From contig OX597824.1 in NCBI GenBank assembly GCA_951406725.2, positions 76,632,001 to 76,696,000 of the forward strand: a DNA stretch of 64,000 bases. The letters run 5' to 3'. Of this stretch, positions 18,842-39,902 are shown in pieces. The position numbers and the translations under genes were made by a program. The notes beneath the pieces are model-generated. The model searched no databases and had not been told where the DNA came from. It saw nothing but the letters and a program-made list of their open reading frames with translations. This DNA comes from Octopus vulgaris (Eukaryota). Numbering within the stretch: the first letter of the stretch is position 1; the number at the start of each line of letters is the position of its first letter.

Positions 18842-19645
18842 GGCGGCGAGCTGGCAGAAACGTTAGCACGCCGGGCGAAATGCGTAGCCGTATTTCGTCT
18901 GCCGTTACGTTCTGAGTTCAAATTCTGCCGAGGTCGACTTTGCCTTTCATCCTTTCGGGGTCGATAAATTAAGTACCAGCTACGCACTGGGGTCGATGTA
19001 ATCGACATAATCCGTTTGTCTGTCATTGTTTGTCCCCTCTATGTTTAGCCCCTTGTGGGTAGTAAAGAAATAGAAATAGGTATTTCGTCTGCCGCTACGT
19101 TGTGAGTTCAAATTCCGCCGAAGTCGACTTTGCCTTCCATCTTTCGGGATCGATAAATTAAGTACCATTTACGCACTGGGGTCGATGTAATCGACCTAAT
19201 CCCTTTGTCTGTCCTTGTTTGTTCCCTCTATGTTTAGCCCTTTGTGGGCAATAAAGAAATGAGAAACGTTAGCACGTTGAGTGAAATGATTTGCCGTATT
19301 GCATCCGTCTTTACGTTCAAATTCTGTCGAGGTCGACTTTGCCTTTCATCCTTTTGGGTGCCGATAAATTAAATACCAGTTGCGTACTGGGGTCGATCTA
19401 ATCGATTAGCCCACTCCCCCAAAATCTCGAGCCTTGTGCCTAGAGTAGAAAATATTATATACCATTTATATATTTATAAAAAGGCGGGGAGCTGGCTGAA
19501 ACGTTCTGAGTTCAAATTACGCCGAAGTCGACTTTGCCTTTCATCCTTTCGGGGTCAATAAATTAAGTACCAGTTGCATAGTGGTGTCGATTTAATCGAC
19601 TGTTCCATCCCCCAAAATTTCGGGCCTTGTGCCTAGAGCAGAAAA
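18842..19645 (+). mobile_element. Tandem array of four SINE D units with two tail types
   Basis: Core GTCGACTTTGCCTT.CATC repeated near 18932, 19123, 19332 and 19527. Confidence 0.9.
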
Positions 19646-30236: not shown

Positions 30237-30439
30237 GTTACCTTTTAGGTATATTTCTAAGTATCTCATACTATTGGTTTGCGGAAGTATATCTTCGGCA
30301 TGGGAGATGATGTAATGGTCACGAGTTCAAAATGCCTGCACTTCTTGTCGATATTAGCATCAGCCTCATCTTAACGGAAAAGATGCCCACATATAATGTT
30401 GTTTTTTCTCTTTTGACATACAAGGTATTTCTCTCCAAA

Positions 30440-30693
30440 GGCGCAGGAGTGGCTGTGTGGTAAGTAGCTTGCTTACCAACCACATGGTTCTGGGTTCAGT
30501 CCCACTGCGCGGCACCTTGGGCAAGTGTCTTCTACTATAGCCTCAGGCCGACTAAAGCCGGGCGAAATGCGTAGCCGTATTTCGTCTGCCGTTACGTTCT
30601 GAGTTCAAATTCCGTCGTATCCTTTCGGGGTCGATAAATTAGTATATGGGATATATATATATATATATATATATATCTGTGTGTGTGTGTGTG

Positions 30694-30736
<43 letters not shown>

Positions 30737-30945
30737 TGTGTCTGTGTTTGTCCCCCAACATCGCTTGACAACCGATGCTGGTATGTTAACGTCCCCCGTA
30801 ACTTAGCGGTTCGGCAAAATAGAACGATAGAATAAGTATTAGGCTTACAAAGAATAAGTCCTGGGGTCGATTTGCTCGACTAAAAAAGGCGGCTCTCCAG
30901 CATGGCCACAGTCAAATGACTGAAACAAGTAAAAGAATAAAAGAA
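30440..30945 (+). mobile_element. Chimeric SINE A carrying a SINE D segment (30557-30641)
   Basis: A head switches at AAAGCC to GCCGGGCGAAATGCGTAGCC..GGGGTCGATAAATT, then resumes the A microsatellite and tail. Confidence 0.85.
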
Positions 30946-31083: not shown

Positions 31084-31265
31084 TTATCTTTTATTAGTTT
31101 TAGTCATTAGACTTCGGCCATGCCGGGGCACAGCGTTGAAGAATGTTCAGTCGAATGAATAGACCCTAATACTTAATTTTTTTTTCTTTTTGGTAAGCCT
31201 GGTACTTATTCTACCGGTTTCTTTTGCCGAAGAGCTAAGTTCCCGGGAGAAACTCAGACTCAAAG

Positions 31266-31297
<32 letters not shown>

Positions 31298-31753
31298 ATA
31301 CATACACACACACACACATATATATATATATATTTAGTGTAGGAAGAAATGGAGCTGAACGAAGATTTAACAAAATTCCTTTTTATTATTTTCTACATAT
31401 GTTTCAAAGGCTGCAAAGTCCCTAATTCGGATTGAATAAGGAGTCCATTTTGCAGCCTTCTCTTCAGGAAAATCCAGGAACTTAATTCTCCAACAAAATG
31501 CACAGCAAGCTTTTCGACAAACGCTCACGAGGAGCCAATGGAATAAATGGCACAAACTGTCTATCACTATGCGTTGACGCATATATATATATATATATAT
31601 ATATACGACGGGCTTCTTTCAGTTTCCGTCTACCAAATCGAGCTTTGGTCGGCCCGATGCTATAGCAGAAAACACTTGCCCGAGGTGCCATGCAGTGGGA
31701 CTGAACCCGAAACAAAGAGGTTAGGAAACAAGCTTCTTATCACACAGCCACGC
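31084..31753 (-). mobile_element. SINE family A split by a ~250 bp hammerhead-bearing insert
   Basis: Tail 31084-31260, head 31603-31753; insert 31334-31580 lies in the internal (TA)n. Confidence 0.8.
31388..31473 (-). ncRNA. Type I hammerhead ribozyme, intact
   Basis: AUUUUC-CUGAAGA-GAAGGCUGCAAA..UUUGCAGCCUUU-GAAA-CAUAUG-UA-GAAAAU, then AAUAAA; 6 bp stem I, 12 bp stem II, GUA triplet. Confidence 0.9.
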
Positions 31754-32290
31754 CAGTATATGAATAATGTATTTGTTTTTGCTGATGACGTTCAGCAGAT
31801 GATGTCTGAGTAATACTGCGACAATCAAAGTATTTTCGTTTGATTTCATGCATCGTATTAATCTCATTCCTTTTCAGATAAAGTCTATCAATATTCCCAT
31901 TTCTATGCAAGTTTCCAATGAAAATTTAATGCCGAGATCTTGGTGGTGTGCTAAAGATTCTGCCACTTCGCCACCTTATCTTCAATGGAATATTATAGCT
32001 TTCTATACCAATAACCGATCATCACGACTCTCCCATCGGATATTCTTTTCCATTCAGTAGATTTGCAACTAAAGTCAGCAAAGTTACGCTTGTCATGTAT
32101 CCTTTACGAGTTAAACGATTAAGACTTAGACTCCGATGTCTTTATATGGGATCAATTCCACAGGGTAAAGAATGGCTACAAGAGGGATCAAGTTGAACAG
32201 ATACGCCAAGGAAACCGGGAAACCGGCCCTTATGGCTCGAGAAGGAATAAACAAAAACAACAACAACAAAAATACTTGCCATAGGCATAA

Positions 32291-39454: not shown

Positions 39455-39902
39455 AACTCAGAATGTAAAGACAGACGAAATACCTATTTCTTTATTACCC
39501 ACAAAGGGCTAAACACAGAAGGGACAAACAAGGACAGACAAACGGATTAAGTCGATTACATCGACCCCAGTGCGTAACACTTACTTAATTTATCGACCTC
39601 AAAAGGATGAAAGACAAAGTCGACCTTCGGCGGAATTTCAACTCAGAACGCAACGGCAGACGAAATACCTATTTCTTTAGTGCCCACAAGGGGCTAAAAC
39701 ACAGAGGAGAAAAACAAGGACAGACAGACGGATTAAGTCAATTATATTGACCCCAGTGCGTAACTGGTACTTAATTTATCGACCCCGAAAGGATGAAAGG
39801 CAAAGTTGACCTTCGGCGGAATTTCATCTCAGAACGTAACGGTAGATGAAATACCGCTAAGCATTTCGTCCCGTGTGTTAACGTTTCTACCAGCTCGCCG
39901 CC
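39455..39902 (-). mobile_element. SINE D tandem multimer
   Basis: Two complete core units and the start of a third. Confidence 0.9.

Follow-up and report, generated by a model that had tools for sequence, protein, structure and literature searches.

A young Penelope-like fragment with a hammerhead motif in the TA tract of an octopus SINE, and its Hydra-related lineage without the linker zinc finger

Results

A Penelope-like fragment splits a SINE

The window, a 64-kb stretch of Octopus vulgaris DNA analyzed as a whole, carries on its minus strand, at positions 31334–31580, a pseudo-LTR fragment of a Penelope-like retroelement (PLE), which is 5′-truncated and ends at the short 3′ end of its family. 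The 247 nt of this insert correspond to the last 247 nt of the element and are bordered on both sides by (TA)n, i.e. by (TA)n at the 5′ junction (31581–31605) and (TA)n(TG)n at the 3′ junction (31266–31333), which represent the upstream and downstream parts, respectively, of the internal microsatellite of a SINE. The flanks align with in-window copies as the head half (31606–31758, minus strand) and the tail half (31100–31265, minus strand, with an internal deletion of ~30 nt) of one SINE family with a central (TA)n(TG)n, of which 11 other copies in the window were aligned. The insert thus splits the SINE at its (TA)n and shares its orientation, both lying on the minus strand, as a preliminary description of the locus had proposed. 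A target-site duplication is unreadable inside the TA tract, and an empty allele of the site was not encountered. The SINE halves are 15–30% diverged from their relatives and the insert differs by ~1% from its sister copies; the SINE was therefore already old when the young element inserted.

A search of the genome (G000) with the insert, in which the best 40 of 1,513 candidates were scored, returned 45 matches at 97–100% identity, and a 23-mer from its hammerhead motif (see below) has 272 exact matches in the genome, compared to none for the reversed control. The insert, whose genomic copy number had been suggested as a check, thus has many other copies; a degenerate version of the hammerhead 3′ half, representing the wider lineage, matched 4,206 times (control, 2). 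Copies in the genome that are 98–99% identical to the insert extend upstream through the 3′ UTR of the element into an ORF with DKT, KDHK, FDI, YRDD and YIG motifs. The 29 open frames of at least 130 residues found in the window in a check for host genes resemble simple-repeat frames. The family is also present in contigs of three sequencing runs, guessed to be RNA, and of one unclassified run, contigs that reveal neither strand nor ends nor the copy read; among the listed pieces of these contigs, none bridges SINE and insert.

A conserved type I hammerhead motif with a palindromic helix III

Based on sequence, a descriptor run with shuffles and pair counts on 17 copies, a type I hammerhead motif was assigned to positions 31388–31473 of the minus strand. 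The anatomy given in the preliminary description is confirmed throughout: stem I pairs ATTTTC (31473–31468) with GAAAAT (31393–31388), CTGAAGA follows at 31467–31461, and stem II comprises 12 contiguous base pairs, the first of which is G.U instead of the usual G-C, and is capped by a further hairpin. GAAA (31405–31402) and the helix III sequence CATATG (31401–31396) lead to the GUA site (T-A after CATATG), with a predicted cut between 31394 and 31393. The motif is followed by AATAAA in an A-rich stretch (31387–31382, minus strand), likewise as described; inserted copies end in (TA)n ~48 nt past this hexamer, without poly(A).

Could the hammerhead be a fold that arose by chance in A/T-rich repeats? 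Rfam did not recognize it, with no hammerhead match at the gathering score or at E values up to 10, and its minimum-energy fold contains stem II alone, as one might expect of a fortuitous structure. However, the descriptor matched once in the 64-kb window and not at all in 100 block shuffles. Moreover, across the 17 copies, which represent several subfamilies, the core is invariant except for N7 and N17, and 90% of cells are paired, with two-sided changes at five pairs, as opposed to 33–49% in slid controls, counts that are inflated by kinship and by drawing the structure from these same sequences. The helix III variants (CATATG, CATGTG and CACGTG) are all self-complementary, and the distance of ~130 nt between the motif and the 3′ end agrees with that in published families of the Hydra clade. 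A chance origin therefore has a negligible probability. Within stem II, pair 10.1–11.1 is G-C in 11 of the 17 copies and G.U in five, and one inner pair is mismatched in 14 copies and closed in the subfamily of the window.

As the helix III palindrome covaries as one, cleavage is likely to need a dimer. In the monomer alone, stems I and III have calculated pair probabilities of 0.05–0.17; an intermolecular helix of 8 bp amounts to –7.0 kcal/mol. The hammerhead is thus predicted to cleave poorly alone and better as a dimer via the palindromic helix III or with the help of the element's protein. With a helix III that changes as a palindrome, the family provides a clean case for the dimer model.

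Nesting in the SINE occurs at the background rate

The preliminary description had further suggested that a SINE-driven transcript could become self-cleaving. Transcription by Pol III is governed by internal box motifs and by T-run terminators, and the SINE was read by these rules. Its head contains TGGCTGTGTGAT at 31750–31739 and GGTTCAGTCCC at 31707–31697, which we take to be A-box-like and B-box-like motifs, respectively. The former reads GAT where most in-window copies read GGT, and the latter is intact. ARAGORN found no tRNA; with its box-like motifs and 12 aligned copies in 64 kb, the host SINE may be tRNA-derived. TTTT runs at 31672–31669, 31498–31495 and 31472–31469 all precede the cut site, in agreement with the caveat on T-runs voiced earlier; the first is private to the host copy among the 12 aligned SINE copies, the last falls within stem I.

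If the Pol III promoter of the SINE drove a read-through RNA that is cut by the hammerhead, the locus might represent a functional or mobile SINE-ribozyme chimera. The common orientation of SINE and insert and the intact B box are in line with this idea, as are two further element ends that lie in the SINE in sense (L019 and L024). Yet the A box is changed in a SINE that is degraded, the three T4 runs would be encountered before the cut, and the pair probability of stem I drops to 0.001 in the read-through context. The descriptor also found no second hammerhead in the 64-kb window that could act as a dimer partner, and the 5′ junction of the window copy is absent from all 29 other best-matching loci. 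The insert, moreover, is a piece of an abundant PLE. Six of 59 distinct element ends lie in the internal TA tract of this SINE, two in sense and four in antisense orientation, and the SINE accounts for 13 of 102 readings of TA tracts from the window and for 17 of 237 readings from other loci; the 59 ends and the 30 loci analyzed include both arms of some insertions and duplicated segments and are not fully independent. SINE nesting is thus neither enriched over background nor sense-biased. We therefore regard the SINE-driven chimera as very unlikely, and the proposal of a self-cleaving SINE transcript as unsupported.

In the SINE copy beside the insert, the head is partly replaced by a second abundant short repeat, which also forms tandem pairs of 186–189 nt at other places in the window (positions concerned, 30435–30930, 18890–19266 and 39455–39855).

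Fixed 3′ ends in (TA)n and variable 5′ ends

Among 30 loci taken in chromosome order, 17 copies end ~135 nt after the CUGA of the hammerhead, 10 end ~288 nt after it and three end otherwise, two of the latter having an internal deletion but reaching the short end all the same. The family thus has two fixed 3′ ends ~155 nt apart, with (TA)n at both. As in the Hydra clade, (TA)n is strongly preferred: 29 of the 30 loci abut (TA)6 or longer, tracts that make up 4.2% of the window, and in older subfamilies a tract of at least (TA)5 borders 42 of 50 hammerhead rows, the other eight comprising six internal pseudo-LTRs, one row cut by the locus end and one followed by an interrupted tract. In the youngest subfamily, the template past the short end reads ATATATA, a sequence able in principle to pair with the TA strand after nicking; as older subfamilies have only a few such letters and nevertheless end in TA tracts, long pairing is not required. 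By analogy to an element from the green anole (see Discussion), the two 3′ ends might arise from two reverse transcription start sites.

Alternatively, the insert might be one monomer of a retrozyme, a non-autonomous element propagated via a small RNA circle. Its ~250-nt size and type I hammerhead would suit the animal retrozymes described in PMC7229834. Retrozyme units, however, are short, arranged head-to-tail, each equipped with a hammerhead and devoid of an ORF, and the copies read do not have this layout, as they contain no short head-to-tail arrays. Moreover, the copies differ at their 5′ ends, where they reach into the coding element, and are fixed at their 3′ ends, a pattern that points to truncation of an autonomous element and renders the retrozyme reading highly improbable.

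The parent element has the layout of an endonuclease-bearing PLE

Unbroken ORFs of 900 and 903 residues, 85% identical, are present in two loci (L113 and L101, respectively). An AlphaFold model of the protein has a pLDDT of 79 and a pTM of 0.78, and its five best PDB matches in Foldseek are telomerase reverse transcriptases (RTs), with low TM-scores of 0.25–0.30 by query. No GIY-YIG structure was listed in the search with the whole protein; its C-terminal part matched GIY-YIG-labelled Atlas clusters at 0.95, which we regard as a lead, and an IYQC...YIG...R...H...E...N pattern aligns with homologs and with published Hydra rows. Pfam returned no RT or GIY-YIG family for the ORFs of the element or for six homologs, and PDB sequence searches gave nothing relevant; the domains were thus named from motifs, from the fold search and from the published alignment.

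A pseudo-LTR runs in tandem into the ORF in five of the 30 loci (L073, L075, L087, L090 and L091), and many loci carry inverted, 5′-truncated second arms. With a single RT ORF, a GIY-YIG domain in the same ORF, pseudo-LTR tandems and a hammerhead motif, the layout is that of an EN+ PLE, i.e. a pseudo-LTR with a hammerhead motif, an ORF with RT and C-terminal GIY-YIG nuclease, and a pseudo-LTR, as this layout is given in PMC8557442.

An (AAT)n tract inside the ORF (L031, 3870–3955, minus strand, and sister copies) varies in length, with poly-Asn stretches of 6 to ~28 residues. Pieces of the element and of a relative are filed in public records as host proteins (P0124, P0125, P0274 and P0006), under names such as "probable serine/threonine-protein kinase dyrk1" and "GATA zinc finger domain-containing protein 14-like"; Asn-rich tracts probably account for these names. 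The closest proteins with a named source are from Octopus sinensis. Four loci on C1 (L031, 5760–6600, and L069–L072) have in common a 5′-truncated element together with its upstream flank, the element having been carried along in a segmental duplication; one pair bears a further insert in the TA tract.

A Hydra-related lineage lacks the linker zinc finger

A first guess, the Neptune clade, was rejected, since neither the CCHH motif nor a CX2-5CxxC linker is present. Features of the Hydra clade were found instead: SDKT replaces DKG, RWL is present in P0122 and P0123 (of 108 proteins that have an RW motif, 85 read RWK), and CCHH is absent, with CALC, CNLC or CGIC and CPH, CLH or CTH (CxxC and CxH beside conserved E and N) in the copies read. 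One listed Hydra feature is missing. The CxCx5C linker before the nuclease occurs in none of 29 readable copies from the 30 loci and is also absent from the other linkers read, so that we classify the family as a Hydra-related variant rather than a plain member of the clade. Subfamilies without linker cysteines span down to ~60% identity. In place of the cysteines, the model has an Asn-rich stretch (residues 641–757) of very low confidence and a short cysteine-free motif (pLDDT ~54–71).

Among 120 homologs, the CxCx5C linker is kept in all 105 nuclease-bearing proteins. In an RT tree of 47 proteins, the family and a group containing two finger-bearing proteins are sisters (support 100/94), and the family is nested within further such proteins; the tree is midpoint-rooted, leaves out P0046, which has no anchor motif, and covers homologs only, the published Hydra sequences having been compared by eye. 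This position among finger-bearing proteins indicates that the loss of the linker is likely derived. In a library of representative fragments, seven carry the replacement motif (P0124–P0128, P0139 and P0190), suggesting that the loss is older than this family. The library is noisy, with the linker pattern matched in 62 of 101 assessable fragments among 150 matches; of the other 39 fragments, four have the replacement motif and the rest look frame-shifted or like spacing variants, many with three to four cysteines, and may conceivably include further linker losses. A word-based search for linker and nuclease among full-length proteins produced 146 candidates, none of which passed. The literature searched, which comprised neither Repbase and Dfam nor most subscription papers, contained no linker-less Hydra family.

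A second abundant Hydra-like family in the genome (L149–L173; e.g. L158, G000:C2:38583479–38586874) keeps a CxC..CP..C linker. With a simple pattern, none of its 25 loci yielded a canonical hammerhead within 1.4 kb downstream of the nuclease, and one distant, chance-like match lies at 1,452 nt. Five copies share ~700 nt of downstream sequence, including microsatellite-like tracts. These loci may represent a hammerhead-less Hydra family or a fragment inside a larger repeat.

Discussion

The insert is very probably the 5′-truncated 3′ end of a young, Hydra-clade-related PLE, whose place in a TA tract inside an older SINE most likely reflects only the element's insertion into TA tracts. By what is known of PLEs, the nuclease of the element would have nicked the (TA)n of the SINE; reverse transcription would then have started from the short 3′ end and covered no more than 247 nt, so that a dead fragment remained. 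The locus at 31334–31580 itself would be such an ordinary dead fragment, in which the hammerhead is likely a passenger. A Penelope end with a hammerhead motif in a TA tract thus has an ordinary cause.

The parent family bears on how such elements find their targets. PMC8557442 connects the targeting of microsatellites by Neptune, Naiad and Hydra elements with the zinc finger of the linker, and leaves the bias to be explained. According to the same source, Chlamys elements without that linker still prefer repeats, which already put the idea of targeting by the finger in doubt. The present family is young, has unbroken ORFs and no cysteines in the linker, and uses (TA)n almost exclusively, which separates the finger from targeting. 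We consider it fairly likely that an octopus Hydra-related lineage lost the linker finger, now has in its place a motif without cysteines that follows a disordered, Asn-rich insert, and yet spread to thousands of copies strictly in (TA)n. The finger would then not be the aiming device. This role might fall to the core of the nuclease, together with the CxxC/CxH sites at its C terminus, to the motif that replaced the linker, or to short pairing of the RNA 3′ end with the nicked TA strand. The case offers a natural test of the open targeting question. The linker was lost here within a clade whose other members keep it, without a CxC domain as a substitute. A lost zinc finger with kept (TA)n targeting is a modest but testable new point.

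The family resembles the Hydra clade (PMC8557442) in its DKT, N-terminal RW, lack of CCHH, CxxC/CxH, C-terminal GIY-YIG domain, hammerhead near the 3′ end and (TA)n targets. It differs from the clade in having RWL or RWF instead of RWK, a 900-residue ORF with two low-confidence inserts, one of them Asn-rich, and a unit of more than 3 kb. Hydra-1_Obim from Octopus bimaculoides keeps the CxCx5C linker, unlike the family in the window, whose hammerhead also has a different sequence and a much longer stem II (PMC8557442). Furthermore, the second 3′ end lies ~155 nt past the first, compared to the tail of 30–40 bp described for PLEs.

Like the minimal and short-helix-III hammerheads in the pseudo-LTRs of metazoan PLEs, the motif is of type I with a long helix II and a small palindromic helix III (PMC4209133). 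The metazoan motifs are mostly dispersed single motifs of truncated elements, with some close pairs on opposite strands, and they are expected to act as dimers and have low activity (PMC4209133). Animal non-LTR retrozymes also have a type I hammerhead, in a PLE-related unit of 200–400 nt (PMC7229834; bioRxiv 10.64898/2026.07.22.740005), but the copies studied here form no tandem array and no fixed unit and derive from a truncated autonomous element.

The closest parallel for the 3′ ends is Poseidon_Ac (PAc) from the green anole, in which two reverse transcription start sites give rise to short and tailed 3′ ends in vitro and cleavage by the hammerhead needed protein, the hammerhead being dispensable for insertion in vitro (PMC11167929). 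Both elements have short and tailed 3′ ends and A/T-rich targets (PMC11167929). Unlike in PAc, both ends in the octopus family lie upstream of the ORF start, ~155 nt apart, the targets are strictly (TA)n, and in the youngest subfamily the template past the short end, ATATATA, matches the target.
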